In this document: one piece after another, positions 3,147 to 19,880 of the stretch | Position numbering within the stretch: the stretch's first letter is position 1 | How the letters are laid out: every line of letters starts with the position of its first letter | Assembly (NCBI GenBank): GCA_963704755.1 | Contig: OY969938.1 | Location: forward strand, 660,001-692,000 | Direction: 5' to 3' | Length of the DNA: 32,000 bases | DNA from: an uncultured Chloroflexia bacterium | GTDB lineage: Bacteria > Chloroflexota > Anaerolineae > Anaerolineales > Anaerolineaceae | Made by a program: the position numbers and the translations under genes | Notes under the pieces: model-generated | Seen by the model: the letters and a program-made list of their open reading frames with translations, nothing else | Told to the model about the DNA's origin: nothing | Databases searched by the model: none

Positions 3147-3203
3147 ATTCGTGCCATTTCATTTCCCGCTTCAATTAATTATAATTATTCTCCTCTTCAA
3201 TTC

Positions 3204-3240: not shown

Positions 3241-3280
3241 CACTTGCATTAAATTAATTTACTTCATCATCAGTCTCCAT

Positions 3281-3964: not shown

Positions 3965-3991
3965 TCTCTTTGGAAAGGATGTAAAGACTTT

Positions 3992-4486
3992 TCATGCCGA
4001 ATATAGAGTGCGAATGGTTTTGCGCGCCTGATTGATTACACGGTCAGAAATCCAAAGTGATGAACCTGCCAAAGCATTTAATGAATTCAATGCCTCGTTT
4101 TCACTCTCGACGTGCCCAACTGCTACTGCCCAAAGCAATAAACCAATCGACCCATGAATTTCCAACCCAAGAGACTCACCAAATTGTCTGGCGATAGCAT
4201 CGTCAGTCAGCAACCATTCCGCTTGCATTTGCATGGTTAGTGCAATGGCAGCTGCTTCACCTTCATCGATCTGTTTTCTCCACTCGAGCGTTTTTCTCTG
4301 ATATGGTTCCTCCAGTTCTTTGATGGTAACCCAATCGGGCAACTTGATATCAGAGGCATTCCGTTTGAATTCTTCTGCCACGACAGATGGAATAATTATT
4401 TCCCCTGCCAGATGCAATAGATTGATGATATTTGCTTCACCAAGATGTAACAGAGGGCCAGTATCGCAAACGACGATACGCCTCAT
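3992..4486 (-). CDS. PIN-domain protein (putative toxin of a type II TA pair)
   Basis: 164 aa. The N-terminus MRRIVVCDTGPLLHLGEANIINLL...IIIPSVVAEEF is typical of PIN-domain proteins (acidic D in VCDTGP). It overlaps the upstream AbrB-type gene by 4 nt. Confidence 0.8.
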   Translation of the reverse strand: MRRIVVCDTGPLLHLGEANIINLLHLAGEIIIPSVVAEEFKRNASDIKLPDWVTIKELEEPYQRKTLEWRKQIDEGEAAAIALTMQMQAEWLLTDDAIARQFGESLGLEIHGSIGLLLWAVAVGHVESENEALNSLNALAGSSLWISDRVINQARKTIRTLYSA

Positions 4487-4704
4487 GCTTTTTGACCTTT
4501 CTGTTTTACTGCCCAGTCAATATCTTCAAGCTGGTATTTTTCAGCCAGAGAACGATCCAGTGCCAGCTTTGGAACTAATCGAATGGTCCCATCGGTATCA
4601 ACAACTGCTTCAAGTAAATCACCTTCAGCGATTTTAGCTTTACGACGCGTTGGAGCAGGTAAGGTAATTTGTCCGTTGCTTCGGACTTGCAGATATTCAG
4701 GCAT
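4483..4704 (-). CDS. AbrB/SpoVT/MazE-family antitoxin
   Basis: MPEYLQVRSNGQITLPAPTRRKAKIAEGDLLEAVVDTDGTIRLVP is a swapped-hairpin AbrB-type motif. I place the start at Met15 (4704) because the track ATG at 4746 sits 2 nt from the -10 box of the promoter below. Confidence 0.8.
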   Translation of the reverse strand: MPEYLQVRSNGQITLPAPTRRKAKIAEGDLLEAVVDTDGTIRLVPKLALDRSLAEKYQLEDIDWAVKQKGQKA

Positions 4705-4748
4705 GGTTAACTCTCTTTCTGATATCCTGATTGTTTGACTTCTCATAA

Positions 4749-4777
4749 ATCATACATCGCCCAAATGCCTTTGTCAA
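4749..4777 (-). promoter_or_regulatory. Sigma-70-type promoter of the AbrB/PIN pair
   Basis: On the minus strand: TTGACA (4777..4772), a 17-nt spacer, then TATGAT (4754..4749). Confidence 0.5.
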
Positions 4778-4900
4778 GGAAAATGGTGAGTTGAAGAATA
4801 AGTCGGCCTGGTTTTATGTTTCTAACTTGTTCCGATAAACCTGAAGCATTATTTCATTTTGTAAATTTATTTTCCAGGCGTAAATTAAAGGAAAGAACCC

Positions 4901-4929
4901 TTGAATTAGTAATACAAATGTATTACAAT
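4901..4929 (+). promoter_or_regulatory. Sigma-70-type promoter with an embedded palindromic operator
   Basis: TTGAAT (4901..4906), a 17-nt spacer, then TACAAT (4924..4929). The inverted repeat GTAATACA-AA-TGTATTAC (4909..4926) covers the spacer and the start of the -10 box. AAGGAG lies ahead of the ATG at 4957. Confidence 0.5.
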
Positions 4930-4956
4930 GTATATAACAAAAAGGAGTTTACAACC

Positions 4957-5184
4957 ATGCCCAGAAAAAATTCGTCCACCAAAGCAGTTCGTTCTTTTCG
5001 CCTCAGCCTCGAATGCGTTCGACAATTGAAAGACCTCTCCGGAAACATGGGACGTAGTGAGGGTGATGTGGTCGAGGTGTCAATCGACCGTATGTATCGA
5101 GAAGAGTTTAGATTTGGGAATTTGATGATCAGCGAAGGTCAAAAACCTGAAGACAACTACAGAATAGGAAAGCAAGAGGAGTAA
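4957..5184 (+). CDS. Small protein (75 aa), possibly a ribbon-helix-helix regulator
   Basis: I place the start at Met48 of track ORF 4816..5184, because the promoter lies inside the longer ORF and AAGGAG precedes 4957. RSFRLSLECVRQLKDLSGNMGRSEGDVVEVSIDRMY fits a strand-helix-helix layout. The assignment is weak. Confidence 0.5.
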   Translation: MPRKNSSTKAVRSFRLSLECVRQLKDLSGNMGRSEGDVVEVSIDRMYREEFRFGNLMISEGQKPEDNYRIGKQEE

Positions 5185-5186
5185 AG

Positions 5187-5657
5187 ATGATTGCGGGATT
5201 ATTTCACTTTGTGTGGAAAATCATTTGGAACACAATTGTAATCCTGGTCTGTGCCGGCCTGGGATTTGTAAGTTACAAAGCCAACCAGCCGATGATGGTC
5301 AAAGAAGCTCCAGCAGGCATGACTTACATTGAGTTTATCCAGGATCGAATCGATGCTGCGAAAACAGTTGAACCTTCGAGATGTGGTTGGGGAATGATGA
5401 TCTCCCTGGCTGTATTAGGTCCAATCTATAGTGTCGTATATACCGACGTGGCAATCTATCCAAATGGAAAGCTTGCTAAATTGACAGCGTCTGACCCGGA
5501 TATTCCGAAAGGCATAGCCGGCGCGAAGTGGACCGAAGTCCCAGGGATTTGGTGGGGAGTGGTGGAACGATTGTCGTGGACAATGCTTGGAAAGCCGGCG
5601 GTGTTTGGATGCAAATTTAGGCCTGTGCTGATAAAATATACTGATAAAGTGAATTGA
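5187..5657 (+). CDS. Hypothetical membrane protein (156 aa)
   Basis: It starts 2 nt after the previous stop. Hydrophobic segments: IIWNTIVILVCAGLGFV and GWGMMISLAVLGPIYSVVY. No recognisable family. Confidence 0.6.
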   Translation: MIAGLFHFVWKIIWNTIVILVCAGLGFVSYKANQPMMVKEAPAGMTYIEFIQDRIDAAKTVEPSRCGWGMMISLAVLGPIYSVVYTDVAIYPNGKLAKLTASDPDIPKGIAGAKWTEVPGIWWGVVERLSWTMLGKPAVFGCKFRPVLIKYTDKVN

Positions 5658-5660
5658 ACC

Positions 5661-5688
5661 TTGATTAATATAACAATATTGTTATAAT
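5661..5688 (+). promoter_or_regulatory. Sigma-70-type promoter with a perfect 16-bp palindrome
   Basis: TTGATT (5661..5666), a 16-nt spacer, then TATAAT (5683..5688). The perfect palindrome ATAACAATATTGTTAT (5670..5685) overlaps the spacer and the -10 box. The ATG at 5703 is 14 nt downstream. Confidence 0.5.
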
Positions 5689-5702
5689 GAATAGGAAACA
5701 TT

Positions 5703-6032
5703 ATGTGGAGCATCGTTTTCTACAAAGACCATCGAGGCAAATGCCCACCTCTAGAATTCATTGAAAAGCTGCCAGTAACGGAGCAGGCGAAAGTTCGCAA
5801 TGCTTTACGACTTCTACAAGAGTTTGGAACTGGCTTGGATATGCCTCATGCCAAACCTATTCAAGGAAAATTATGGGAGTTGCGTCCTGGTGGTGTTCGG
5901 TTATTCTATTTTGCCTATATTAATCAACAATTCGTTATCTTGCATGGATATCGGAAACAAGGGATGAAAGCTCCCGAACGCGAAATCGCAGCGGCTTTAA
6001 GACGCATGGAAGAATTAATGAGTGAGGTATAG
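5703..6032 (+). CDS. Gp49-like / HigB-RelE-superfamily toxin
   Basis: WSIVFYKDHRGKCPPLEFIEKLPVTEQAKVRNALRLLQEFG...GKLWELRPGGVRLFYFAYINQQFVILHGYRKQGMKAPEREI is the classic phage Gp49/DUF891 pattern. It overlaps the downstream XRE gene by 11 nt. Confidence 0.85.
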   Translation: MWSIVFYKDHRGKCPPLEFIEKLPVTEQAKVRNALRLLQEFGTGLDMPHAKPIQGKLWELRPGGVRLFYFAYINQQFVILHGYRKQGMKAPEREIAAALRRMEELMSEV

Positions 6033-6321
6033 TATGGCTCGAAAAGAGTTGACTCGATTTGAAGATTGGGAAGCAGAAAAACTAAAAAACCCTGATTTTG
6101 TAGCGGCAGCTGAAGCGCTTGAACCTGGATATCAGATCGCTCGACTGCGCATTTTACGCGGCTTGACTCAAACCCAATTAGCCGAATTGGTTGGTACACG
6201 CCAACCCTCGATTGCGCGTTTGGAAAATGGATCGAGTGTTCCTAGTATTTCTTTCTTAAAAAAAGTAGCCGCAGCTTTGGATGCTAGAATCGAAGTCAAG
6301 TTGGTGCTGGGGGCAAAGTAA
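6022..6321 (+). CDS. XRE-family HTH antitoxin
   Basis: LRILRGLTQTQLAELVGTRQPSIARLENGSSVPSISFLKKVAAAL is an XRE/Cro-type HTH. It is paired with the Gp49-like gene. Confidence 0.85.
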   Translation: MRYSMARKELTRFEDWEAEKLKNPDFVAAAEALEPGYQIARLRILRGLTQTQLAELVGTRQPSIARLENGSSVPSISFLKKVAAALDARIEVKLVLGAK

Positions 6322-6426
6322 GTTTTCCGAACCTTTAATTGGATTACTGTTTTGAATAATTTTCAAGAGTAGATGGAATACTTGATAGGGTATCTCATTG
6401 TTATTATAGAACCCGGACGCGCTTGA

Positions 6427-6957
6427 TTACTCCAAATCTTTTACAATCTCTCGAAGTCGCCAGGGTCGGTAATTTCTCACTTCTACACACATATTGATAT
6501 GGTTGGGTCCAAGAGTTGAACCCTCAGGTGGTGGCGGATTATTGTGAATATGACCATGCAGATTAATCCAACCATCCTCAAGCGGAACAACTGGCCAGTG
6601 GGAAAAGATTAACTTTATTTTGTCACTGAATTCAACTTGAATCGGTGTATTAATAATGCTCACTCCGTGAGACTCGTATCGGATTCTATTTAGTCGATCA
6701 TGATTGCCACGGATTAAAATTATTTTGCCATTCAATATTTCGGTAAGAATATCAAAATTGCTTCTTTTTCCAAATGCAAAATCGCCCAAGTGAAGGACGG
6801 TATCCTCTGGGGAGATTAAATCATTCCAGTTTTTGATTATTAGTTCTTGCCAATTGTCGGGACGGTTGCAGTATCTTCCAACATTCACATGGAAGAAGTG
6901 TGTATCTGAGATAATCCAAGTATCCTGATTGATTCCAAACGTGTTGTCGAACTGCAT
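6427..6957 (-). CDS. Calcineurin-like metallophosphoesterase
   Basis: Motifs appear in order: ISDTHFFH (D.H), LGDFAFG (GD), IRGNHD (GNHD), LHGHIH (GH.H). Confidence 0.85.
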   Translation of the reverse strand: MQFDNTFGINQDTWIISDTHFFHVNVGRYCNRPDNWQELIIKNWNDLISPEDTVLHLGDFAFGKRSNFDILTEILNGKIILIRGNHDRLNRIRYESHGVSIINTPIQVEFSDKIKLIFSHWPVVPLEDGWINLHGHIHNNPPPPEGSTLGPNHINMCVEVRNYRPWRLREIVKDLE

Positions 6958-7091
6958 CCTTCAATTATAGTTTGATAGTCAATTTTTATTATGACAAATT
7001 AATATATAAAGGTATGACCATTTAGCCCGTTTCCATCATGTGTTCCTTTAGGAACTAATTGTGAGTTTATTATGAAAATTTGAGTAAATCA

Positions 7092-9374
7092 CTAACTAAT
7101 ATTTATCACTCTACAAATTTCGACTGGTATATGGATTTGATCTTTCAGAAAATGGTGCCATGCAATTTGGTGGTCCGCAATCTTTTCTTTTTCCCCTTTT
7201 ACCTCTACAAATAACGGGGTTCCGTTTTGAGAAATCAGAAATAGATCGGGGAGTCCTTTTCGGTTGTCATTGAAATTTTCTAATAATCTTCTCATGATAC
7301 TCATCAATTGGTTTTCATATAGAACCTGGGTGGCAATTGCCAATGAATCAATTGAATAACGTTGCCAGTTCTCAATTGGACGACAAGGTTTTCCGTAATT
7401 CTGTTGGAAAGCAGATCGTAATTCTATCTCGGGTGTGGTCTTAACCAAACCAAATAATTTTGGTGAATAAATATCTTTGATACGATGCTCAATCATTGCT
7501 TTTCGCCGTTGGTAAAACTGGGGGTAAAAGAAATCGTGGGGCATATCTTGCATTTTGCTGGGAAATTCACCAAATTGTGGAGTATAAACACTTTGAAGCT
7601 TAGCAAATATTACATCCCAAAATAGCAAGGCCATAATTTCCCACCAATAATCATTTTCAGTCCAATCTCCCCGATAGCCACGTGAAATGAAATTATTTAG
7701 GACAAATTGCTCAATTGTCAATTCTCTGTTATTTGGTCCCAAATAGTAAGCTTTGCCGGCACCCACGGTCAACTTATGAGCTTCAATCCAACGGATAGGG
7801 CAACCATTTTCTTCAGTGGGTAACTGTTTGGTAATTGCTTTTGGTAAAGGAGGTGGAACTTGGTCAGTAATTTTCTCTGCCTGGTTGTTATCTGCTGGAA
7901 TGAATTTAGGAGGCTCAGGTACGGTACTAAATAGAATTGCATAACGAGTTCCAACCAGTATTCTGCCCGTTTCAAAACATGAAACGGTATGAATTGTTTT
8001 TGCAAACTCAACTTCTGCAAGAAGTTTTCCGCTAATAGTTGTGATTGCCATTTTTTTATCAGACCAGACGGCGATTCGATTGGCTGATTGACTAAAAGCA
8101 AGTTTTCCATAACCAAAGTTTGGAATTTTGCCGATTTTCTTCCCGGAATCGTAGATCAATACATCGCTAGCAGTGCAAATCCCAAACATAGCTTCATTTA
8201 TCCAATAAACCCCAAAAATGGAGTCGTTGTCGATTTTGTATTTTTTGATTGTTCTATCTTCAAAGATTTCATAAACTGCTTCTCTTGAGGCAATTAGCAG
8301 GTTTTTGCCTGATGGTGAAACTGTGATATCTACAGCGGATGGAGCTCCCATAGAAATTGTGAATGTTATCCCTTGAGATTTGCTAGTTTCTACTTCTTCA
8401 GGAATATCCCATTTATATTGAAGTTTCCCAACCGGATTGAGAACATAAAGGGTCCCAAAACTTGTAAATGCAACCAGCTCCTTCCCAGCAGAGACATAAT
8501 ATGGACATGGAAGGAAATAATCATCGTTTTGAGTAGATTTATTTCTTGACAATCCGTACGACCACAAGTTTTGACCGTCGGGTGAAAATGCATAAAGCTT
8601 GCCATTTCGGCAACCGGCATATATCTGATTATCTGAAACCACAACCTCAGATGGTACATCCGGCAGCAATTGCTTGTTTATCAATTTACCATCTGGGTTA
8701 TAGAAGAAAAAGGTAGTTTTTCCATCGCCGATTTTTCCATCTCGGGTATATAAAATTACCCATTCTCCAGATAGTAACAATCCGGTCGGCTCTCCCATTA
8801 TTTGTGTTTCCCAGGTTCGCTCATTTTCACCAATTTGATGGCAGAACAATTTGGGTGTATTTCCCCCAGTTGTGCCATAAAAACGATCACCTGTACTAGC
8901 GAGGGCGGAAAGTTGCGGAGAAATTTGAACTTGCTGTATCAAGGATATATTGCGTTCACCAGCCCGAATTGTAAAATCTGGGATAATTTCTTTTAGCGCG
9001 CCTTTAGGAGTTGTACCGGTTTTTATTTCCAACCGCTGTTTCCGTTTCTTTAATTCAGCTTCCCACCCCGCATCTTTCTGGATTTTGAGGGCTTTTTCAA
9101 TAATTGTTAGAGCTGGCAAATATTGCTTTTGTTTTTCAAGGTTAATCAAATAACGGTTGAATGTAAATGTGTCTGAACTACCTTCTGAGATCGCCTTAGT
9201 ATATAGTTGTACAGCTTCAACGAGATTCCCCGCTTGCTCGTATGCATTAGCAATTAATCCACGAATTCGCCAGTATATTTGTGGATACTGTTGTAAGGGA
9301 AAATAATTGGCTGTTCTATTGAATAATTTGATTGCTTCGTTATAACGCTTTTCTCTAACTAAACGTGAAGACAA
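7092..9374 (-). CDS. Multidomain protein: N-terminal TPR, central PQQ/WD-like beta-propeller, C-terminal FAN1-like VRR-NUC nuclease
   Basis: 760 aa. TPR: YNEAIKLFNRTANYF...GNLVEAVQLYTKAI. Propeller-type repeats: NQIYAGCRNGKLYAFSPDGQNLWSY and ELVAFTSFGTLYVLNPVGKLQYKW. The C-terminus RKGLPDLFLISQNGTPLFVEVKGEKEKIADHQIAWHHFLKDQIHIPVEICRV matches the VRR-NUC/FAN1 core (GLPDL ... EVKG..D.L...Q..W ... EVC.V). Confidence 0.8.
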   Translation of the reverse strand: MSSRLVREKRYNEAIKLFNRTANYFPLQQYPQIYWRIRGLIANAYEQAGNLVEAVQLYTKAISEGSSDTFTFNRYLINLEKQKQYLPALTIIEKALKIQKDAGWEAELKKRKQRLEIKTGTTPKGALKEIIPDFTIRAGERNISLIQQVQISPQLSALASTGDRFYGTTGGNTPKLFCHQIGENERTWETQIMGEPTGLLLSGEWVILYTRDGKIGDGKTTFFFYNPDGKLINKQLLPDVPSEVVVSDNQIYAGCRNGKLYAFSPDGQNLWSYGLSRNKSTQNDDYFLPCPYYVSAGKELVAFTSFGTLYVLNPVGKLQYKWDIPEEVETSKSQGITFTISMGAPSAVDITVSPSGKNLLIASREAVYEIFEDRTIKKYKIDNDSIFGVYWINEAMFGICTASDVLIYDSGKKIGKIPNFGYGKLAFSQSANRIAVWSDKKMAITTISGKLLAEVEFAKTIHTVSCFETGRILVGTRYAILFSTVPEPPKFIPADNNQAEKITDQVPPPLPKAITKQLPTEENGCPIRWIEAHKLTVGAGKAYYLGPNNRELTIEQFVLNNFISRGYRGDWTENDYWWEIMALLFWDVIFAKLQSVYTPQFGEFPSKMQDMPHDFFYPQFYQRRKAMIEHRIKDIYSPKLFGLVKTTPEIELRSAFQQNYGKPCRPIENWQRYSIDSLAIATQVLYENQLMSIMRRLLENFNDNRKGLPDLFLISQNGTPLFVEVKGEKEKIADHQIAWHHFLKDQIHIPVEICRVINIS

Positions 9375-9396
9375 TTCAATGAATATTTCTTGTGGT

Positions 9397-9762
9397 TTAC
9401 CAGAAAGATGCTGTTCCCCTTTTTGCTGCCAGATCTTCTGCTATTTCAAAGGATCGGTCAAATTCACCCGCCATAACAAGGATGGATAGAAGACCGTAAT
9501 AGGTAGCTGGAATATCCGTGCCGATCTGGACGGCTTTCTCATAAGCGGCACGAGCTTTATCAATCAATCCAGCTTGTTCATAACAATCCCCTAATCGACC
9601 CAATCCAAAAGTAACTCCATCTTGATCTTTTTGTTTCTCGTATTCTTGGATTCCTTTTAGAATATACTTTTCAGCTTCAGCAAAGTTCTTTTGCGCTTCT
9701 AGAGCTAATCCTTTTGAAATTAGTTCGATTGGTTCTGGCATAGTCTCACCTGAATCCTTCAA
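9397..9762 (-). CDS. Small TPR-repeat protein
   Basis: 121 aa (or 114 aa from Met8 at 9741). TPR-like repeats: FAEAEKYILKGIQEYEK, LGDCYEQAGLIDKARAAYEKAVQIG. It ends 22 nt before the next gene. Confidence 0.7.
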   Translation of the reverse strand: MKDSGETMPEPIELISKGLALEAQKNFAEAEKYILKGIQEYEKQKDQDGVTFGLGRLGDCYEQAGLIDKARAAYEKAVQIGTDIPATYYGLLSILVMAGEFDRSFEIAEDLAAKRGTASFW

Positions 9763-9831
9763 TTCATTTCACTGAATAGTGTTTTTTGTTATATGATTTT
9801 AGAAATGGTAAGTAGTTATTAGGTTTCTTAT

Positions 9832-11259
9832 TTACATATAGAATTTGAATTGTGGCATTGGCTCACGGTCAGAAGGAATTTCCCTCATAATTTCTCCTAC
9901 GATATCTGAGAATTGAAGAGTAATCGGTGCCTTTCCACCCAGTCGTGAAGAATTCCAGTTCATCTTGGTCATAATGAGCACTTCCTTCAGAAGTGTTTCT
10001 CTCGGCGTATCTTGTCCAACATGATCAGTGATTAGAATAGGCGAAGGCACATGCAAAACATGGGATTGTCCTAACTCAGATATAAATCCTGTTGTATAAA
10101 GGAAATCCATGTCGCCCACCATAAATCGAGTGCCACGTAAGGGGGGGTAGCTGCTGGTTGTTAGTAAGCGGATGTGACTCTGTCTGGTATCAAATGACAT
10201 CAAATCAAATTTGTTTACTCGTTGGCTTAGAGTTTGCCTGAAACCATCTTTTTCTCCCGGCCAGAACTTCGAAGATTTATGAATTACTACTCGACTGGGG
10301 GTCTGTCCCATTTCCTTCTCATACCGATCTAGAACAATATTGATTAAATTACTCGCGTCCTGATTGTTTAGATGTGGAGATCTAGAATCCATTCGATATG
10401 AGTTCCACTGGAATTCGGGTCCTCTAAGAATTAGCCCATCACCATGTTCATCGAATGCCTGAACAAGACTTGTTTGCATGGAATCAAATTTTGATCCTAG
10501 GGGGCGATAGAAGGCGACACCTACATAACAGGTTCCAGGTGTCAATCCAATCGGACCCCAGGGGACTCCACCGGCTTTAAAATAAAGACCTGTGAAAAAA
10601 TTCCAAGCTACTTTTGATGGATCATCTTTTTCCCTACCATCAATTGTTTGTTGGCGGAGAAATTGCGTGGGTATCTGGTATTTCATTGCCAATGCTTTAA
10701 ACGCCCTTCGCAGATCTCTATGCACCAAACCTTTTTCTTGGTCTCGGTATTCAACATCCTTACATTTTTCATATACGTTGTCTGGCAACGCTATAACAAC
10801 ATATTGAGGTGGTTGGTCTTTCTTTGACAATAAATCGAGTTTTTCTTCCAATTTTTCCAGTAGGAACTCAAACCTATCTCTAGGTTTCTTTTCCAGAATT
10901 TCATCTATTTCTTTTTGAGTAAGTTGGCCATTCCAATCTTGATCAAAAATCAATTTTGAGAAAAAACCGCGGTCTTCCATGTAACCCGGAAATTCGACGT
11001 GGTCTTCGTCACATAAAACGCCTTCAGAAGTTTTTTCCAGCCAGCTCCTCGCGGAATCAATTGTCTCAGCGCTTCCAATAAATCCTACTCGTACTGTGTC
11101 TGGGTGTTTTCGTTTTGGGCTAAAAGACTTTGGCCCATATCGAGATATTCCAATTTTAGGGTCAATATGTTCCCCTCCGTTTGCAAATTGTAGTACGGGT
11201 TCTTCCAAGTATTGACACTTGATTATTGGTTCAATCGATTGGTTAATCGTCAATGTCAT
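9832..11259 (-). CDS. Short prokaryotic Argonaute (MID + PIWI only), predicted catalytically inactive
   Basis: 475 aa is too short for N-PAZ domains. pAgo hallmarks: PQYVVIALPDNVYE, HRDLRRAFKALAMKYQIPTQFL (MID 5'-end pocket region), WNFFTGLYFKAGGVPWG, and the C-terminal FKFYM. The DEDX positions are lost: CYVGVAF sits where active Agos have G.DV, and VVIHKSS where they have RDG. Confidence 0.9.
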   Translation of the reverse strand: MTLTINQSIEPIIKCQYLEEPVLQFANGGEHIDPKIGISRYGPKSFSPKRKHPDTVRVGFIGSAETIDSARSWLEKTSEGVLCDEDHVEFPGYMEDRGFFSKLIFDQDWNGQLTQKEIDEILEKKPRDRFEFLLEKLEEKLDLLSKKDQPPQYVVIALPDNVYEKCKDVEYRDQEKGLVHRDLRRAFKALAMKYQIPTQFLRQQTIDGREKDDPSKVAWNFFTGLYFKAGGVPWGPIGLTPGTCYVGVAFYRPLGSKFDSMQTSLVQAFDEHGDGLILRGPEFQWNSYRMDSRSPHLNNQDASNLINIVLDRYEKEMGQTPSRVVIHKSSKFWPGEKDGFRQTLSQRVNKFDLMSFDTRQSHIRLLTTSSYPPLRGTRFMVGDMDFLYTTGFISELGQSHVLHVPSPILITDHVGQDTPRETLLKEVLIMTKMNWNSSRLGGKAPITLQFSDIVGEIMREIPSDREPMPQFKFYM

Positions 11260-12553
11260 CTTCTACCCCCTCGTCAAGATTACTAAATGGATCATCATTT
11301 TCAAGGGCATTTTGCAGTTTTGCCCAGGTGAATAAATCCTCTGCATACTCAACATTGGTAAAGGCTTTTGCATATTTTTCTGGAATACCAGGCCAATCGA
11401 TATCACCAACAAGAAGAGTCGTAGATATTACAAGTGAGGATGATCCAAGATTTATTATGATTCTTGGTTCGTTACTACTAAGAAAACTCCTCCAAAAATT
11501 GATTTCTCCCAATAGATCATAATTGAACATTTTGCTTTTCTTCCGTGTAACTTTAGCCCCAACTTTTTCAGAATCTAAAGGTGTGTTGCCGTCTTTTGTC
11601 ACTCGGAATTCCGGCCGAAGAGTGAGACACCACCGACTAGATGATACATAATAGAATCGAAGGCTAATTGAACGGTGAAGCCAGTAGGATTTGGGTAGTC
11701 CAGTCTTTTTTGTGATTGGCTGCCAAACTACGTATTTTTTCGCCGCAGTTTGATTTAGCGGCTTGTATTCTATATCTTTAGGTTGGCCAGGTTGATCGGG
11801 CACAAAGTAATATCGGTAGTGCATGGGATCATAAGCCAAACCTTTTTGATTTGTAAATATCCTGATTGTGTTATTTAGCAGTTCGACGAACCAACGAGAT
11901 TTGACAGGGTCATCCCACCATTCACGAGATGGTATTTGCCTAACCATATTTGCATCCACGAGAGTGCAGAAAGGACTATCGGTATTTCTGGGATCTTGAA
12001 AGGTGTATAGTCTATCATCCTTGAGAATATAAGGTAAATAAACGTCTGGCGGTATAAATAATGGTAATTGCTCAATCGCATAATTTGTGAGAGTGTTTTT
12101 TGTCGGTGTAGACTGATAAAGGTAAACAGGGGTCTTTACTACCTCAAGAAGAGATGAATAAATTTTTTCTATATGATACTTTTCTCTACGCTGATCACTC
12201 TTTGATTTTTTATCAATGGCATTTCCTAATGCAGTCCGGACGAGTTTTTCGTGATCTTCCTTCATTCCACGCAATCGCTCGACAGTATACAGCTGTGGTT
12301 TGCTATCAATAATTTTATGATGTTCAGGGCAAAGCAGCATTAAGTTGCTTTCTTCATCTCTCTGATCCAACGGCAATGCGAACTTTCCTCTAGGACCATC
12401 CTCTCGTTGAGCAACAATATGAGCCACATTGCTCAAAATAACGGTGCTGTCATCGCCTTCTTGTAAAGTCAGGGTAGTTGGACAACCAGGAAATGCACAC
12501 CTGTTTCCGGATTTTTGTAGGAGAGCTTTTAAATCTGACGGCGAAATCGCCAT
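11243..12553 (-). CDS. HNH-nuclease / APAZ-type partner of the short pAgo
   Basis: 436 aa. It overlaps the pAgo start by 17 nt, the standard effector-APAZ then pAgo order. The N-terminus CAFPGCP...VAHIVAQ...EESNLMLLCPEHHKIID is a Cys-rich HNH (beta-beta-alpha-Me) motif: C19, C24, H45, N70, C75, H78/H79. Calling the remaining ~330 aa APAZ is inferred from position, size and partnership. I cannot verify that fold by eye. Confidence 0.75.
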   Translation of the reverse strand: MAISPSDLKALLQKSGNRCAFPGCPTTLTLQEGDDSTVILSNVAHIVAQREDGPRGKFALPLDQRDEESNLMLLCPEHHKIIDSKPQLYTVERLRGMKEDHEKLVRTALGNAIDKKSKSDQRREKYHIEKIYSSLLEVVKTPVYLYQSTPTKNTLTNYAIEQLPLFIPPDVYLPYILKDDRLYTFQDPRNTDSPFCTLVDANMVRQIPSREWWDDPVKSRWFVELLNNTIRIFTNQKGLAYDPMHYRYYFVPDQPGQPKDIEYKPLNQTAAKKYVVWQPITKKTGLPKSYWLHRSISLRFYYVSSSRWCLTLRPEFRVTKDGNTPLDSEKVGAKVTRKKSKMFNYDLLGEINFWRSFLSSNEPRIIINLGSSSLVISTTLLVGDIDWPGIPEKYAKAFTNVEYAEDLFTWAKLQNALENDDPFSNLDEGVEDDIDD

Positions 12554-12733
12554 AATTTACTCCTATTCAAAAGGATGGTAATAGATCTATTTTACCTTCG
12601 CCACGCTTTTCCTAGATTATAGAAAAACTACATGTCTTACTTCTCAACCACTTTTTTCAAAAAGATTATTATGTATATTAAGTATCAACGATGTAAAATT
12701 TAGCGAACAGAGAATAGGTATTTTTAAATTTGT

Positions 12734-13315
12734 TTATTTTTTTTGTTCCGTTATTGCTTTCCTTCCTGCATTTGTTATAGTCCATATTCCTTTGGGCAAA
12801 TCGTTTGCCATCAACCCATCTTTCACGAGTGCATTCCTTGCCCATTGAACAGTGTTCCGCCAGCGTGGAAAGGAAGGAGCTGATAATAATGGCTGTTTAT
12901 CATAGTCATTTAATGCGCTTGCCATTATTTTCTCTATTTGGGCGATGACATCTGTTATGTTAGCGGTCCCCCCAAAGTGGATAAGGGATTCCAGAATTGG
13001 AGTTTTAAATTCTTCTTCTGGGGTACGCAGACCGCGTTTTAATTTACTCTTTCGTTTAGTGTTGGATCGTTTCCGTTCGCCGGGTGTTTTTGGACCTATT
13101 TGTGACTCCAGCGCGCGCCATTCAATTTGAAGATCCTTGATCTTTCCTCTAAATAAGATCGTAGCCTCAGCTTTCTCAAGCAATAGACGAGCTTTCTTGT
13201 GATCGGAGAGGGAGAACTGATGAGATCCTTCCTGGTTGAGCTCTTCAATAGCAGTTTCAATCTCTTCCAATAGGATTTCGAATGCAGATGAGACTTCGTT
13301 TTCCACCATATTCAT
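12734..13315 (-). CDS. Coiled-coil protein with a C-terminal Mrr_N-like winged-helix domain
   Basis: Track ORF 12734..13390. The start is probably at 13315 or 13309, after AAGGAG. The C-terminus TPILESLIHFGGTANITDVIAQIEKIM...FPRWRNTVQWARNALVKDGLMANDLPKGIWTITNAGRKAI resembles the N-terminal wHTH of Mrr-type restriction proteins. No catalytic domain is present. Confidence 0.6.
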   Translation of the reverse strand: MNMVENEVSSAFEILLEEIETAIEELNQEGSHQFSLSDHKKARLLLEKAEATILFRGKIKDLQIEWRALESQIGPKTPGERKRSNTKRKSKLKRGLRTPEEEFKTPILESLIHFGGTANITDVIAQIEKIMASALNDYDKQPLLSAPSFPRWRNTVQWARNALVKDGLMANDLPKGIWTITNAGRKAITEQKK

Positions 13316-13364
13316 CTCCTTATACAGTATTTCAGAATTGACCTTTTTCAGGAACTTTTCCCCA

Positions 13365-13934
13365 TTAGGAGCCAGTATAGCCATTGGCAATCGGTAAAAT
13401 TCTTGTTGCCGTATAGATAATTATTGGAACCCAGAGATTCTCTTTCGGAAATGAAGCACAAAGGTAAGGTGATCTTTTTCCGGTGTCACCCAGCAATTCC
13501 TGCTTTGTGCCAACCTCTGCGCCAGCTTTCCTAAGTTCGCTGAAAAGTGATAATCCAGCCCCCTGATCCAAATCAAATTCTGATATCGTTGGATGTAGGG
13601 TTTCATGTTTGTCAAAATACTCTTTGGGGTAGGCTTGACGAAGCTCTGTATAGAACCTGCGAGGATTGTCTGGAATAGGTTGAATGGCCAGACGCAACCC
13701 ATGTTTGAGTCTATCAAAGGTATTGTATTCTTTCTGTATTTCAAGAGTTCTGATGTCTCTTTCCCCAGTAATGAATATTGCATACCCTAAACGGATATCA
13801 ATCCTATCGTCTGTAACGTGAAAAGGAATTACCTTTCCAATGGATCTTTTTTTACTGACTGTGTAACTTTCATAACTCTCTGGAGATCTTTGTCGAATGG
13901 TTACCATCCCGAGTGTAATAACATCATCCACCAT
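13365..13934 (-). CDS. Hypothetical protein (189 aa)
   Basis: The ORF follows res after a 38-nt gap on the same strand. No family recognised. There is a weak D-x19-E-x-K pattern (IDIRLGY ... LEIQKEY). Confidence 0.55.
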   Translation of the reverse strand: MVDDVITLGMVTIRQRSPESYESYTVSKKRSIGKVIPFHVTDDRIDIRLGYAIFITGERDIRTLEIQKEYNTFDRLKHGLRLAIQPIPDNPRRFYTELRQAYPKEYFDKHETLHPTISEFDLDQGAGLSLFSELRKAGAEVGTKQELLGDTGKRSPYLCASFPKENLWVPIIIYTATRILPIANGYTGS

Positions 13935-13972
13935 AATAATTTCCCCTTTCTTTTGGTTTCTGTCATAGGCTG

Positions 13973-16951
13973 CTACACTTCCCCTGCGTTTACCACTACT
14001 GCAAATGGTACGTCCAAAGCTTCAAAATGTTTTTTACCGCAGCGGACTTTATCTGCCTCGCTGTTACGTAATTGCAAGAAATCACGTGTGCCCTTGGTTT
14101 CACGTATCAGATAAAGGGTCTGATCGCCTTCTTTGACGATGGCCCAATCGGGGTTGTACTTGCCAACCGGTGTATCGATCTGGAACCAACCAGGCAACTT
14201 AACAAACAGCTTGATATCTTCACGCTGATCTAGCTGGCGAGCAAACTCGCACTCCACTTCAGAATCATACACAACATACTCGTAGATGGACTTATCAACC
14301 TTCAGAGAATTGAGATAATTGACGATCTCTTCATTTTTGAAGAGCAGCATTTCCCATTCAGAATCAGGGTCGCTACCCGGTATTTTTTCATATTTGATGC
14401 CATCCACTAGTAAGCGGTGCAATTCATTATTGATAATATGTGCGGCAGTATCCATAAACCGCTGTGGATCGTTGAAAAACTCGTTCAGACGGCCAGATTC
14501 TTTGAGAATGCGTACCAGGGTGGAGCGCGTCAATTCAGTCTCGTTTTGAAGATAAGCCAGTACATCTGGCACGAGGTGGCTGCCATAGGTCATTTTTTCT
14601 TCTGCTACACTCATAGGCGTTGCAGTTACCCCGCCTTTTGCCACAACGACCTGCCCGGCAACCACATTGACTTTGGGAACTTCAATGGATTCCATCCGTT
14701 TCAATGCGGTCACAGCCTGGCGGACAAGGTCTTCTGTCTGGAACTCGACCCGATAAGTCGTTTTGGGTTTGATACGTTCCCAAAGAGCCTGAAATTCAGG
14801 GCTGAGTTCTATTTGTTTGCGTAAGTGATTGCCACCTTCATCTTTTTCTTTGCGGATATGACGTTCAATCTGATAGGAGGAGAGCAGATCAATTACCGCC
14901 GAGGCCAGGTCTTGATGCGCTGCCGGCAAATTGAGGCTGAAGCCTGCTTGGCGCGGATTAAACGCCGGCTGAATGCGTCCTTCGTTATCCAGCATTTTTT
15001 GGGCGACTAGTGCTGTACGAATTTCTTCTGCTGCAGGGCGCCCGATGGGTTGTTCCTGTCCATCCACTACACGGATTAGTTTCGCAATCGCAGTCAGGGG
15101 CACTTTGCCAAAGGTGACACCGCAATCTTCTTCATATTCTGTTTGCAAAGCGCTGGCAAATTCCTCGTAACTTTCGTTCGCCATTACATACAGCTTATTG
15201 ATGGAATCATCCCGCACACGGAAACCGCTTTGGTCTACCGGTAAGCGCAGACCACGCCCAATTTCCTGACGTTTTTTCATGGAACTGCGAGTTTCATTCA
15301 GGGTACAAATTTGGAAGACATTGGGGTTATCCCAACCTTCACGCAACGCTGAATGGCTGAAGATGAAACGTAAGGGTTCATCCATGGATAATAGACGTTC
15401 CTTTTCTTTCATAATCAGGTTGTAGACGTCATCATCGGCCTGGGTGTCACCGCGAGTATCCTTTAACACCCCTTTCTTATCCTGAGCAAAATAGCCGTTA
15501 TGGAGTTTCTCGACTGGCAGCTTCAGCCAATCCAACATCTGATATCGCGGTTCTTGAACCAATTCGGCCAATGCGGCTTCAAACGCCAGTGCAAACTTTC
15601 CTTTAATTGCGTGACCATCTGCATCATAATCGCGGTAATTGGCCACCCGATCCACAAAGAAGAGACTGAGTACCTTGATGCCGCGCTGCCGCACCAGCAG
15701 TTCATTTTCAAGATGGCGCTTGATCGTGTGTTTGATCTGTACGCGCCAGATATCCTCACGGATGCCACCGCTTTCTTCTCCCAGACGCAGCACCCGTCCA
15801 TTGTTGAAGCGGATATATTCATTACCGGGTTCAGCGTTTATCTCTGCTATTGAGAAACCATCCTGATAAACAGCCCGTTCGTTAGAAAGTTCATAGAGAT
15901 CTGCACCATTCTTTACGGTAATAGGTTTTTCCTTAGGACCGTCTGGTGTCTGCATGTGGATGCGCAGTTTGGCCTTGATACCATTTTTATATTCCACCTG
16001 TTCGACACGCACAAAGGCATCATTCGCATTCCCGCTGCCGCTGGCACTGGCAACAACAATCTGTTTGACCAGTTTCAATTCAAAAGCGCGTACGGGATCC
16101 AGGCGGTAAACCAGGTTATATGGATTGCGATGAGTGGCTGAGTAACGTAAGGTACATAACGGGTTAAGCGCTTTAATGGCTTCCTGGGCTTTATCGGTAT
16201 TATCCACACTCTGGGGTTCGTCAATAATGACAATAGGGCGGGCAGCCTGGACAAACTCAATAGGTTGACGGCCAGACAGTTTGTCGCTCTCCTTGTAGAT
16301 TACGTTGCTCTTTTGTTCAGCCTCAGTACCAGTAAAATTCTTTCGGAAAGCGTCGATATTAATCACCAGGATCTGCAATGTGTTGCTGACTGCAAACTGG
16401 CGCAGGCGGTTGATTTTGCGGGCATCATAGACGAAATGCTCAAATGACAGGTTGTTATAGAGAGCGCGGAAATGGTCTTTGGTAATTTCGATATTCTTCA
16501 GCACCCCTTCACGGATGGCAACGCTGGGGACGACAATAATAAATTTTTGAAATCCATAACGCTGTGAAAGTTCAAAGATCGTGCGCAAATAGACGTACGT
16601 TTTACCAGTGCCGGTCTCCATCTCCACTGAAAAATGAGGACAGAGCCGGGTGGTATTGGCAGGAACATCGAATAGTTCCCAGGCTTCCAGGGGAGCAGCT
16701 TCGTCTGCAACTTCTATATCATTCAGAGTTTGGATTTTGCGAGTATTGGTGTGAAGTTTTTCTTCTGACAACAATAGATGATTGCCAACTCCCAGCTCGG
16801 TGCGCGCCTGGCCGACCAGTAGGCCACCGTAATCGCCTACGTTGATGACGCTATATTCTGGAGTACCCTGCGACTGACCATCGAAAAGGTCAGTGATAGC
16901 TGCTACGGCATCGAGCTGAAACTGCTGGTTGGGGTCAAATTGAAGCTTCAT
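13973..16951 (-). CDS. res: Type III restriction enzyme Res subunit (SF2 helicase plus C-terminal PD-(D/E)xK nuclease)
   Basis: 992 aa. The typical N-terminus is MKLQFDPNQQFQLDAVAAITDLFDGQ. Motifs: Walker A METGTGKTYVY, motif II VIIDEPQ, and C-terminal nuclease YNPDWAIV...LIRETKGT. The start overlaps the rhuM stop (ATGA). Confidence 0.9.
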   Translation of the reverse strand: MKLQFDPNQQFQLDAVAAITDLFDGQSQGTPEYSVINVGDYGGLLVGQARTELGVGNHLLLSEEKLHTNTRKIQTLNDIEVADEAAPLEAWELFDVPANTTRLCPHFSVEMETGTGKTYVYLRTIFELSQRYGFQKFIIVVPSVAIREGVLKNIEITKDHFRALYNNLSFEHFVYDARKINRLRQFAVSNTLQILVINIDAFRKNFTGTEAEQKSNVIYKESDKLSGRQPIEFVQAARPIVIIDEPQSVDNTDKAQEAIKALNPLCTLRYSATHRNPYNLVYRLDPVRAFELKLVKQIVVASASGSGNANDAFVRVEQVEYKNGIKAKLRIHMQTPDGPKEKPITVKNGADLYELSNERAVYQDGFSIAEINAEPGNEYIRFNNGRVLRLGEESGGIREDIWRVQIKHTIKRHLENELLVRQRGIKVLSLFFVDRVANYRDYDADGHAIKGKFALAFEAALAELVQEPRYQMLDWLKLPVEKLHNGYFAQDKKGVLKDTRGDTQADDDVYNLIMKEKERLLSMDEPLRFIFSHSALREGWDNPNVFQICTLNETRSSMKKRQEIGRGLRLPVDQSGFRVRDDSINKLYVMANESYEEFASALQTEYEEDCGVTFGKVPLTAIAKLIRVVDGQEQPIGRPAAEEIRTALVAQKMLDNEGRIQPAFNPRQAGFSLNLPAAHQDLASAVIDLLSSYQIERHIRKEKDEGGNHLRKQIELSPEFQALWERIKPKTTYRVEFQTEDLVRQAVTALKRMESIEVPKVNVVAGQVVVAKGGVTATPMSVAEEKMTYGSHLVPDVLAYLQNETELTRSTLVRILKESGRLNEFFNDPQRFMDTAAHIINNELHRLLVDGIKYEKIPGSDPDSEWEMLLFKNEEIVNYLNSLKVDKSIYEYVVYDSEVECEFARQLDQREDIKLFVKLPGWFQIDTPVGKYNPDWAIVKEGDQTLYLIRETKGTRDFLQLRNSEADKVRCGKKHFEALDVPFAVVVNAGEV

Positions 16952-17982
16952 TGTTTCTTCTTTCCCGTGAGTCGCTTCGTTTCTTTTTCGAAATCGCCCT
17001 CGAAGTTATGATCCTGCTCGACACGGAAGCGTTCATATTCATCCTGAGCCAAATGGGCAGCCACTTCGTGTGAGACTCTGCCGGGATCGTGCAATATATC
17101 ATACTCATTGAACTTGAGAAATGCATCGAGTTTCTCTACCCAATCTTGCATGCGCATGGGAATTTGACGCTCGGCTTGAAGATCAGCATAATCAAGGTAC
17201 ATGGTGACGATACGTTCCAGTTCCTTAATCTCTTTTTCATTCAAGTAATTCTTGGCGACAACGACATCTGATTTGAGAATCTTGCCGTGTGGGGCGTTCT
17301 TCCAGGTGGTCAGACCCATATTGGGCAGTGAGGCTTTGGCGCGAGAAGCAATGATCTCGGCAGCAGTTTGACCCGTGATAGCCCAGTGCAGCTTATTCTG
17401 CACGGTCTGGAAGAATGTCTTGGTTATTTCAGCAGTAGGGGAGTAATCAATGCTGCACTGTTCGTAAATATCAGTGATCTTTAAATAGAAACGGCGTTCA
17501 CTGGCACGGATCTCGCGAATCCGTTCGAGCAGTTCATCGAAATAATCTGGTCCGAGGCGTTTATTTAACTTAAGACGTTCGTCATCCAGCACAAAGCCTT
17601 TGACAATAAACTCGCGCAAGGTTTGTGTGGCCCAAATGCGGAATTGGGTTGCGCGCAAGCTGTTGACACGATAACCGACGGCAATGATCGCATCTAAATG
17701 GTAAAAATTCGTCAGATAACTTTTTCCGTCCGCTGCAGTATTCCGGAATTTCCGGATAACTGAATTCTCTTGCAGCTCTCCGCTAGAGAAAACTCTCTGC
17801 AAATGTTCACTCACTGTTCTTACATCCACATCAAACAGTTCGGCAATCTGTTTTTGGGTCAACCATAAGGTTTCATCCTGAAATAAAACCTCAACCCGGA
17901 TATCCCCTGAAGCAGTCGAATATAGGATGATTTCCCCTTTTGAAGGAGAGGCTCCAGAAGAATGATCAACTTTTTCAGTCAT
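16948..17982 (-). CDS. rhuM: RhuM-family protein
   Basis: IRKFRNTAADGKSYLTNFYHLDAIIAVGYRVNSLRATQFRIWATQTLREFIVKGFVLDDERLK is the RhuM signature. I place the start at Met41 of track ORF 16948..18102 (ATG at 17982 preceded by GGAG). The longer start would overlap the mod C-terminus. Confidence 0.85.
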   Translation of the reverse strand: MTEKVDHSSGASPSKGEIILYSTASGDIRVEVLFQDETLWLTQKQIAELFDVDVRTVSEHLQRVFSSGELQENSVIRKFRNTAADGKSYLTNFYHLDAIIAVGYRVNSLRATQFRIWATQTLREFIVKGFVLDDERLKLNKRLGPDYFDELLERIREIRASERRFYLKITDIYEQCSIDYSPTAEITKTFFQTVQNKLHWAITGQTAAEIIASRAKASLPNMGLTTWKNAPHGKILKSDVVVAKNYLNEKEIKELERIVTMYLDYADLQAERQIPMRMQDWVEKLDAFLKFNEYDILHDPGRVSHEVAAHLAQDEYERFRVEQDHNFEGDFEKETKRLTGKKKQ

Positions 17983-17998
17983 TGATGCTCCTTCAAAA

Positions 17999-19880
17999 TC
18001 ACACCGTCTTGAAACTGGGAACGCCCTGAGTCTTAAAAATTTCAACAGCGTTCGTCTTGAGCTGATCGTTGCCGGCAAAACCAGCGTCCAGACAGACCAC
18101 ACGTTCAGGTTTCAGGGCGGCCATGGCACGGATCACTTCTATGGTCAGATCAGGCTCCAGACAAATCAGAAGTTCTCCGCCGGCCACGCTGAAGACCTGT
18201 TTGCCGGCCAGAGTCTAGAGGTTCATTAGGAGTAGTGAGCGGGAAACCGCTCTTGAGGAGGAGCTCATAGAGAATGTCGGCCTGGCTGCGTCCTTCGCGA
18301 ATATGTTCGATGTGTAGCTCAAGCTGCTTTTCGAGAGCGGCGGTATCTTTGGGCGTGTTGGCATTCCAAGGTTTGAAGTTGGATTCCGCCAGTTTATAGA
18401 CACGGAAACCTCGATCCTGCGGAGCGTCAAGAGGAAGTTGCCCGGCTTCCGCATCGTTGAGCTTTTTGATCACTCGGCGAACACGCTCTTTGGTAATCTC
18501 GGCAATAGTAGAAAATCCAGCTTTACCTGCTTCTGAAGTTTTTTCGCAAGGTTCTGGAAGTTGAATGATAATAAACTTTCTATTACCATTATCTGCTTTA
18601 TTTAATTCAAGAACTGCTTGACCTGTTGAGCCTGAACCTGCAAAAAAATCAAGTATTAAGTCTTCATTGGAAGAAACCATCTTCATCATTCTGATAATTA
18701 ATGATGGTGGTTTTGGATATGTGAATACATCTTTCCCAATTAATGAATCCAATACTTTAGTTCCATCATCAATAGTCCCAGTCTCTTTGTGTGTCCATAA
18801 GTTTATTGGAACAACTCCATCATTTAATTCGGATAAAAACCTTTTTAGCCTAGGATATTGATTATTATTTTCTTGTCCCCAAAATAATCTTCCTTCAGAT
18901 TGATGAATTTTATATTGTTCAAAGCTATATTTCCAAGCATTTGTTGGATGGTCGATCTTTTTACTGTTAAATGGATTGGTAATTGTATATGATAAGTTTG
19001 GTCGTTCATCTTTTGTTCTTTGACTTATATAAGAGACACTTGTCCAAGGACCCCTTGGATCATTATCGGGGTTTGAATATATTGAATCAGTTTTTTCATT
19101 TCTGGGTTCTCGTAGTATATCAAGAGAATCACTCTTTCGATATTCTAAAACATGATCAATTACTGAGGAAATTAATTTTGCATCATTATTCCTTGTAAAC
19201 CGTTTCTCCCAAACAATATCAGCTATAAAATTTTCTTCTCCAAAGATTTCATCGCATAATTTTCGCAAATTAGCGACTTCGCAATCGTCAATAGAAATGA
19301 AGATTACCCCGTCTTCACGCAATAAATTGTGAGCCAGATACAGGCGCGGATACATCATATTCAGCCAACGTGAATGAAAGCGACCGTCCGTATCGCTATT
19401 AGTGCCAAATTTCTTCCCTTCAGTATCTGACTGACCTGTATATTCGAGATAGGTCTGCAAGCTCTCGCTGTAGTTATCGGGATAGATAAAATTATTACCG
19501 GTGTTATATGGAGGATCGATGTAGATCATCTTGACTTTGCCCAAATACGACTTTTGCAGCAGTTTAAGTACTTCGAGGTTATCGCCTTCAATAATCAGGT
19601 TCTCGGTTGTGTCAAAATTGATGCTCTCTTCGGGGCAGGGCAACAACGTGCCGGTACTGGGCGTCTGAATGGCGCGGAAGCAATCCGCTTTACCGGGCCA
19701 ATTCATGCCATAGCGCTCTTTGCCCACGTCTACCGTCTCACCCAGGGCCAGCTTGAGGCGGTCAAAATCAATCTTGCCATCCTCGGTGCGTGCTTCAGGG
19801 AAGAGGTCGAGCAATTCCTGCCGTTTTTCGGCAGAGATATTCAGCGAATTCAGGTCCAGTTTTTCAGGTTGATCGGTCAT
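17999..19880 (-). pseudogene. mod: Type III R-M methyltransferase Mod (beta-class N6-adenine), with the reading frame broken ~70 codons before the natural end
   Basis: Motif IV IYIDPPYNTGN precedes motif I LDFFAGSGSTGQAV. The main frame (18150..19880) ends in ...GFPLTTPNEPLDSGRQTGLQRGRRRTSDLSGA. A different frame reads TLAGKQVFSVAGGELLICLEPDLTIEVIRAMAALKPERVVCLDAGFAGNDQLKTNAVEIFKTQGVPSFKTV (18214..17999), which looks like a normal Mod C-terminus. That second frame is closed upstream by a TAG at 18217..18215. Confidence 0.7.

Follow-up and report, generated by a model that had tools for sequence, protein, structure and literature searches.

A pair of overlapping genes in a bacterial defence island very probably encoding a SPARHA-type short Argonaute system

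The window considered here, i.e., the whole 32,000-nucleotide (nt) stretch of contig OY969938.1 (positions 660,001 to 692,000), harbors on its minus strand two overlapping genes which very probably, as judged from their sequences, represent a SPARHA (short prokaryotic Argonaute, HNH-associated) system. One of them codes for a short prokaryotic Argonaute (pAgo) of 475 amino acids (aa), the other for a 436-aa protein, HNH-APAZ, combining an HNH nuclease head with an APAZ part. Both proteins match, over their full length, the two chains of a single PDB entry, 9OM4: the pAgo matches 9om4_B with E = 4.7e-147 and 50.4% identity, and HNH-APAZ matches 9om4_A, annotated as the "HNH endonuclease" chain, with E = 1.9e-94 and 38.4% identity. 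This entry is the cryo-electron microscopy (cryo-EM) structure of the filament of AcaSPARHA from Acidithiobacillus caldus (Kanevskaya et al., Nat Commun 2025, PMC12738770).

An earlier sequence-only reading of this locus proposed a heterodimer of a short pAgo and an APAZ partner, armed with an HNH DNase and acting via abortive infection. This proposal is supported: it coincides with the mechanism published for SPARHA (PMC12738770), and both proteins are full-length orthologues of those of AcaSPARHA; the two open reading frames (ORFs) and their 17-nt overlap were likewise confirmed by the coordinates given below. The same reading regarded the HNH-fused partners as the least studied branch, but the class is not uncharacterised: such partners had been known from bioinformatic surveys (PMC10810196; PMC12738770, introduction), and the class was named and dissected as SPARHA in 2025 (PMC12738770). 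Hence, there is little new in the pair as such, because the architecture, the mechanism, and the structure of the class were published in that year. What the window offers is an intact additional SPARHA orthologue, to which a function can be assigned by homology. The features of the pair, numbered from the first letter of the window, are as follows.

9832..11259, minus strand: ORF of the short pAgo, 475 aa, MID-PIWI, predicted to be catalytically dead
10273..10515, minus strand: PIWI segment with A249, S329, and the sensor loop SL1 (aa 291-297), located by BLASTP, hhalign, conservation, and mapping to AcaSPARHA
10576..10722, minus strand: codons of the MID 5'-end pocket (H180, D182, R184, K188, Q199, D212, K228)
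11243..11259, minus strand: 17-nt overlap of the HNH-APAZ and pAgo genes
11266..11272, minus strand: GAGGGGG, Shine-Dalgarno-like site of the pAgo gene, within the HNH-APAZ coding sequence (sequence context)
11243..12553, minus strand: ORF of the HNH-APAZ effector, 436 aa
11294..12181, minus strand: APAZ domain, about aa 125-420, located by PADLOC and by AlphaFold2 with Foldseek
12209..12553, minus strand: HNH nuclease domain, aa 1-115, with the N-terminal helix, zinc ligands C19/C24/C75/H78, and catalytic H45/N70/H79
12314..12316, minus strand: codon of K80 in HNH-APAZ
12428..12430, minus strand: codon of N42 in HNH-APAZ
12560..12564, minus strand: AGGAG, Shine-Dalgarno site of the HNH-APAZ gene and, at the same time, the upstream edge of DNA homology with relatives
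12565..12733, minus strand: AT-rich stretch upstream of the Shine-Dalgarno site, local and non-conserved

The head of the 436-aa protein is a Cap5-like HNH (His-Me finger) domain with a Cys3His zinc site. The Cys-rich motif noticed at its N-terminus earlier is indeed that of an HNH nuclease: the motifs CAFPGC, AHIV, and SNLMLLCPEHHKIID fall within residues 19-83, the Cap5/CBASS-type HNH effector models of PADLOC match the head with E from 1e-28 to 1e-22 (2e-33 for PDC-M68A), and the PDB search returned the Cap5 structures 7rwk, 8ysq, and 7rwm (E from 1e-8 to 5e-7). The Pfam HNH_2 model stayed below its threshold (19.9 bits vs. the gathering score of 21). In the alignment of 120 sequences (here and below, for HNH-APAZ and pAgo alike, the window protein and 119 relatives), residues H45, N70, H79, and C75 show no variation, C19, C24, and H78 are found in 118 of the 120, and the Q13-K14 motif of the HNH helix is conserved as well. 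The AlphaFold2 model places H45 on strand 43-45, N70 ahead of strand 71-73, and H79 in helix 76-84, so the predicted layout is that of a beta-beta-alpha-metal fold. Residues N70 and H79 align with N71 and H80 of the Aca protein, the substitution of which abolished its activity (PMC12738770). In this respect, the residues recommended earlier for mutagenesis were well chosen, and the same applies to R184 and K188 of the MID pocket, corresponding to Aca R180 and K184.

The APAZ fold anticipated for the rest of the protein was found as well. The PADLOC models Aga_REase-PNTD1-PNTD2 and Aga_SIR2-PNTD1-PNTD2 match it with E = 1.3e-32 and 2.6e-32, respectively; at E = 1.3e-32 and weaker, the PNTD1-PNTD2 region matches short-pAgo partners of the nuclease, SIR2, and TIR types. 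The AlphaFold2 model of the 436-aa protein, built with 56 aligned sequences as the input (mean pLDDT 83), has 9om4_A as its top Foldseek match, with a TM-score of 0.89 (normalised to the resolved APAZ chain) and E = 1.9e-25, the next matches being the APAZ chains of SPARDA and SPARTA. By this model, the C-terminal part is predicted to have an APAZ fold.

The 475-aa protein is covered end to end by the PADLOC model pAgo_I (E = 2e-140). The profile searches called for previously returned all three components, i.e., the pAgo, the APAZ part, and the HNH head (the latter at about 1e-28), at levels that chance cannot account for. In the active TtAgo, the catalytic tetrad consists of D478, E512, D546, and D660, D546 being that of the "RDG" motif. 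The window pAgo carries GVAF (residues 247-250) and HKSS (residues 327-330), from which the loss of the catalytic positions had been deduced. For comparison, the TtAgo reference was taken from plasmid pTT27, and its tetrad residues were checked in the translated sequence. BLASTP places D546 opposite S329 and D660 opposite D452, while hhalign of the short-pAgo profile with the single TtAgo sequence, used solely for this motif-anchored position since its overall probability was 5%, places D478 opposite A249 on the strength of the conserved GLYFKAGG/GLLAKAG motif. Across the 120 aligned pAgos, position 249 is occupied by Ser, Gly, or Ala and position 329 by Thr or Ser, with Asp at neither; D452 (codon 9904..9906) is retained in the window pAgo, and Asp is found there in 35 of the 120 sequences. 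With A249 and S329 replacing the aspartates, two of the four tetrad positions are therefore lost, and the PIWI tetrad of the window pAgo is predicted to be inactivated. A candidate equivalent of the Glu finger at about S292 was rejected, the hhalign alignment being unreliable there; the Glu-finger position falls in the region of SL1, the sensor loop of the SPARHA paper.

The guide-binding MID pocket is retained, each of its seven positions being conserved in at least 115 of the 120 sequences. In the cryo-EM structure, Aca R180 and K184 contact the 5'-phosphate of the guide, D178 and R180 contact the 5'-A, and D212 contacts U2 (PMC12738770); Aca D178, R180, K184, and D212 correspond to D182, R184, K188, and D212 of the window pAgo. 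As regards the sensor loop, Aca residues 290-296 align with residues 291-297 of the window protein without a deletion, although the sequence differs. Among the pAgo structures in the PDB, 9om4_B is followed by the pAgos of SPARDA (198-168 bits), those of SPARTA (157-144 bits), and 8in8 (72 bits), a further short-pAgo entry annotated just as "Piwi domain protein". This order is consistent with the placement of the window pAgo in clade S2B. Overall, the pair displays every feature of SPARHA membership that can be checked in silico except the "bridge" glutamate of the HNH head, itself not universal in the family (see below).

The steps of the mechanism proposed for the pair are transferred by homology from the published SPARHA systems (PMC12738770). 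Three of these, MllaSPARHA, AcaSPARHA, and LheSPARHA, have been tested, and all of them required both guide RNA and target DNA. In the Lhe system, HNH-APAZ is constitutively active when free, and its pAgo silences it (PMC12738770). By homology, the window proteins would associate 1:1 as a heterodimer, with the pAgo keeping the HNH nuclease inactive. The guides of SPARHA are 17-21-nt RNAs starting with 5'-AU and enriched from transcripts of plasmid origins (PMC12738770), and the MID pocket of the window pAgo would be loaded with similar small RNAs (~17-21 nt, probably 5'-AU) derived from abundant transcripts of the invader. Pairing of the guide with target DNA over more than about 10 bp displaces SL1 and extends the connector loop, whereupon the heterodimers assemble right-handed helical filaments, and the HNH heads form dimers via their N-terminal helices and then tetramers with double active sites (PMC12738770). 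In the window system, pairing with complementary invader DNA beyond ~10 bp would likewise push out SL1, the sensor loop of PIWI, and thereby extend a connector loop. The heterodimers would then polymerise as helical filaments, and the freed HNH heads, once dimerised by the N-terminal helices, would combine two by two as tetramers having double active sites. The degradation of double-stranded DNA by SPARHA is Mn2+-dependent and nearly sequence-independent, and it kills the cell, i.e., leads to abortive infection (PMC12738770); the same indiscriminate Mn2+-dependent cutting, with the destruction of host DNA, would abort the infection here.

Several observations weigh against the assignment of the pair to SPARHA or against an unqualified transfer of the mechanism. 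The function is transferred across 38-50% identity, with experiments done on systems other than the window pair, and the residues of the CL/IL filament interface are given solely in Mlla numbering (PMC12738770). The general-purpose libraries are nearly silent: the pAgo is matched neither by Pfam Piwi nor by NCBIfam, and NCBIfam returns nothing for either protein. Hence, the PADLOC and PDB searches were needed, and the missing matches reflect the limits of those libraries, not the lack of the fold. Certain base contacts differ from those of AcaSPARHA. Thus, Aca G163 and R164, contacting the 5'-A base, are K167 and D168 in the window pAgo, and Aca R367 and the APAZ residue Y340, located in the T1' pocket, are S370 and F343 in the window proteins; because of these replacements, the preference for the 5'-nucleotide of the guide may differ. 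Finally, the position of the "bridge" glutamate (Mlla E50, Aca E43) is taken by N42 in the window protein and its close relatives.

As regards this last point, the substitution E50A inactivates MllaSPARHA both in vivo and in vitro (PMC12738770). Among the 120 aligned sequences, position 42 is Glu in 71, Asn in 23, and Lys in 19, and it co-varies with position 80: the combination E-H occurs in 40 sequences, K-D in 19 (exclusively in both directions), N-K in 16, and E-Q in 15. The pair N42/K80 of the window protein is common to all its relatives of at least 56% identity. The Mlla numbering was mapped here by constant spacing and not by the Mlla sequence. No member with Mlla-like numbering (Q15, K16, E50, H53, K88) was found among the 119 relatives retrieved; the equivalence of position 80 to the K88 partner of Mlla is derived in the same way. 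The covariation is consistent with the published model in which the two residues meet across HNH dimers, and it suggests that the chemistry of the interface varies between SPARHA subclades, with the reservations that it is clade-structured and that the Mlla mapping is indirect. Since the bridge Glu is essential in Mlla yet not universal in the family, it does not define the family; at the same time, the dimer-dimer interface of the HNH heads may differ in the window protein because N42 replaces it.

It is rather unlikely that the Anaerolineae-type subclade, characterised by N42/K80 and the 17-nt overlap, assembles an active HNH tetramer without the acidic, metal-bridged interface. If it does, a different metal dependence or activation threshold could be expected in this subclade, and, taken along with the clade carrying the charge-swapped pair K42/D80, it would mean that the nuclease-activating interface was re-wired in evolution while the sensor stayed constant. 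A broader reading, that the pair is a SPARHA relative with a differently activated nuclease, in which a polar N42/K80 contact replaces the metal-bridged contact between the HNH dimers, is unlikely. It could entail a changed metal requirement, a changed threshold, or other oligomers (e.g., tetramers and not long filaments), and it draws on the position of N42 opposite the residue indispensable in MllaSPARHA, on its fixation with K80 in the closer relatives, and on the covariation. Still, approximately 40% of the natural members lack Glu at this position and are nevertheless selected together with their pAgo, a substitution by Ala is not equal to that by Asn, and the covariation events are non-independent, being clade-structured, with the Mlla numbering obtained by spacing.

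Comparison with the known systems places the pair closest to SPARHA proper. As in the Aca, Mlla, and Lhe systems, the HNH-APAZ gene lies upstream of that of the short pAgo; the domain architecture is colinear with that of AcaSPARHA over the full length, with the same catalytic and zinc residues of the HNH head and the same MID pocket residues. The differences comprise, apart from the moderate identity and the replaced residues listed above, the gene overlap and the host, probably a member of Anaerolineae (Chloroflexota). SPARDA (9qbp, 9qbq, 9qcc, 9jsz) shares with the window pair the S2B-type short pAgo and the APAZ fold, and SPARDA, too, operates through a collateral nuclease that filament formation activates (PMC12738770), but its head is a DREN nuclease of the PD-(D/E)xK type and not an HNH. 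DUF4365 proteins match the window partner in the APAZ part alone (aa 170-359, E about 1e-4).

The closest solved HNH domains are those of the CBASS effector Cap5 (HNH-SAVED; 7rwk, 7rwm, 8fmf), matching aa 5-108 of the window protein with E from 1e-8 to 6e-4, and the PADLOC SAVED_HNH/CBASS effector models match the head with E down to 1e-28. Tetramerisation into double active sites was proposed as the activation mechanism common to Cap5 and SPARHA (PMC12738770). Unlike the window protein with its APAZ part and pAgo, Cap5 possesses a SAVED sensor binding cyclic oligonucleotides. The identity of a CBASS effector was rejected, as residues 120-436 are APAZ and not SAVED; no CD-NTase was revealed among the neighbouring genes scanned. 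SPARTA (TIR-APAZ) and SPARSA (SIR2-APAZ) also combine a short pAgo with a partner of the shared APAZ fold, and their effectors are activated by oligomerisation after RNA-guided DNA binding, but these effectors are NADases depleting NAD+ and do not degrade DNA; the SPARTA pAgos are also more distant from the window pAgo than those of SPARDA.

Both genes are under purifying selection. Against relatives ~85% identical in DNA, the ratio of nonsynonymous to synonymous substitution rates (dN/dS) was 0.056 for the pAgo and 0.10-0.11 for HNH-APAZ, with dS of 0.65-0.85. The genes are inherited together: in each of the 49 related loci that could be evaluated (those where the contig continues), the next gene downstream in the same orientation encodes a pAgo, and across 28 loci the two genes diverge in close proportion to each other (r = 0.96). 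In blastn, the homology to the related loci L001, L003, L004, and L005 spans 12564 to 9833 (to 9738 for L001). The neighbourhoods are unrelated, e.g., a TetR gene with transposase fragments in L001 and a Type I restriction-modification (R-M) system in L083, and no neighbour gene of the window was found by tblastn in any related locus. The pair has a GC content of about 40% in every host vs. 45-53% in its flanks. Since the homology is confined to the two ORFs and the neighbourhoods are unrelated, the unit of inheritance is a bare two-gene cassette, and this cassette moves between unrelated defence islands. As a separate observation, the homology to L001 runs ~95 nt beyond the stop codon of the pAgo (9738..9832), whereas with L004 and L005 the match does not reach past that codon; the extension may represent a conserved 3' element of short length or what is left of an insertion boundary shared by the two loci.

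These data bear on the possibility that the pair is a part of a larger system with its co-directional neighbours (an Mrr_N protein, a 189-aa ORF, TPR and TPR/propeller/VRR-NUC proteins, and the Type III R-M system). The neighbours and the pair share one strand, the minus strand, with short gaps in between, and the scan for promoters and terminators revealed no terminator-like site separating the pair from them; moreover, two of the neighbours bear nuclease-related domains, and Type III R-M is a defence system itself. The absence of the neighbours from the related loci, the end of DNA homology at the two ORFs, and the different surroundings of the pair in L001 and L083 make such a larger system very improbable. 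Even less probable is a toxin/antitoxin-like pair, in which HNH-APAZ would be a constitutive DNase and the pAgo a mere inhibitor released by a trigger other than a nucleic acid. The constitutive activity of the free Lhe protein and its silencing by the pAgo (PMC12738770) fit this idea, as do the overlapping, probably translationally coupled genes; at the same time, a mere inhibitor would not need the conserved MID pocket and sensor loop or the selection documented by the dN/dS of the pAgo, and the three tested SPARHAs all depended on guide RNA and target DNA (PMC12738770). Although the DrmD-like helicase of the same island is broken into three ORFs, it is extremely improbable that the pair is a relic, decaying or no longer functional, of an island in degradation, as neither ORF is disrupted, all functional residues are kept, and dN/dS amounts to 0.06-0.11 at dS of ~0.65-0.85.

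Full-length relatives were retrieved from Chloroflexota, Streptomyces, Planctomycetota, Acidobacteriota, Gemmatimonadota, and other groups. The 90%-identity cluster comprises proteins of Levilinea saccharolytica and of metagenome-assembled genomes of Anaerolineaceae, and the probable host was deduced from these members. No full-length HNH-APAZ was found in the collections of plasmids (PLSDB) and phages (INPHARED). The pair adds to a family with three tested members an intact and selected orthologue with a probable Chloroflexota host, and it shows the module travelling between defence islands as a bare two-ORF cassette. Its value is that of cataloguing and, possibly, of a further programmable collateral DNase for DNA detection.

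Certain related loci harbor short pAgos 59-62% identical to that of the window, i.e., nearer to it than AcaAgo, next to APAZ partners with other heads (L031:5791-7017, L033:4749-6002, and L036:185-1435 from cyanobacteria; L037:4966-7050 and L041 from Blastocatellia). One of the alternative heads is the "effector-associated domain" adaptor EAD10 (PF19954; E about 1e-28 to 1e-30). The second one, borne by an APAZ protein of roughly 690 aa, is a calcineurin-like metallophosphoesterase (PF00149; E = 2e-12). The presence of non-HNH heads beside such similar pAgos implies that effector heads have been swapped within one pAgo clade. The surroundings of the EAD10-APAZ/pAgo pair of Tychonema revealed no partner with an EAD10, and no paper linking APAZ with effector-associated domains was returned from the literature library searched. 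The pairs with EAD10 and metallophosphoesterase heads may represent uncharacterised short-pAgo systems.

The layout of the two genes varies across the family: the 17-nt overlap is present in the close relatives L001 and L083, and short intergenic gaps replace it in the more distant ones. Upstream of the pair, the AT-rich gap from which a promoter of its own had been surmised does exist (12554..12733, 180 nt, GC 0.278), but the promoter itself gained no support. A single site resembling the -35/-10 boxes was found in the gap (12697..12668, TTTACA-18-CATAAT, 10 of 12 matches); in the region, eight promoter-like sites were detected vs. 11.5 expected from shuffled sequences, i.e., no enrichment, and the gap has no blastn homology in the closest relatives. 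A promoter in the gap is plausible, yet nothing apart from the existence of the gap speaks for it.

The pair resides in a mosaic low-GC block (0.33-0.50) occupying window positions 1..26500, which is probably an integrated defence island. With its 40% GC, in a defence island next to an rpoC gene of 58% GC, the SPARHA module is foreign cargo in this genome. No tRNA or Rfam family was found anywhere in the window and no att repeat was identified, so neither an att site nor an RNA component can be assigned. The surrounding features include the following.

7092..9762, minus strand: 121-aa TPR protein and 760-aa TPR/beta-propeller-like/VRR-NUC protein, directly downstream of the pAgo gene
12734..13934, minus strand: two overlapping genes between the Type III Res gene and the SPARHA pair
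13973..16951, minus strand: Res of the Type III R-M system
16948..18102, minus strand: RhuM-family gene (PADLOC PDC-S05) between Mod and Res, overlapping the start of Res by 4 nt
18150..19880, minus strand: Mod of the Type III R-M system
20862..22028, 21946..23277, and 23396..23755, minus strand: DrmD-like SNF2 helicase in three ORFs
24798..26117, plus strand: tyrosine integrase bounding the island
26938..31173, minus strand: single-chain rpoC, 1411 aa, 58-60% GC, adjoining the integrase

The 760-aa protein has an unusual architecture, with an N-terminal TPR part, a propeller-like middle, and a C-terminal VRR-NUC nuclease; neither it nor the 121-aa TPR protein is matched by PADLOC models, and both are unlinked to SPARHA in other genomes. 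Of the two genes upstream of the pair, one codes for the 189-aa protein without matches in Pfam, PADLOC, NCBIfam, and PHROGs, and the other for a 218-aa protein with a C-terminal Mrr_N winged-helix domain alone, i.e., without a nuclease domain; the two could act jointly in defence or regulation as a small uncharacterised pair, which is not conserved beside SPARHA elsewhere. The helicase ORFs match the DISARM-type profile PDLC02619 (872 positions) at its positions 24-113, 157-579, and 574-641 (in the order from 23755 downwards), and the split is probably due to a frameshifted or decaying gene or to a sequencing error. Further genes of the island encode a 381-aa TIR protein (673..1818, minus strand; PADLOC PDC-S66/bSEFIR-like), an rve-family integrase/transposase (1915..3030, minus strand), and a homologue of Gp49/HigB-like toxins (5703..6032, plus strand).

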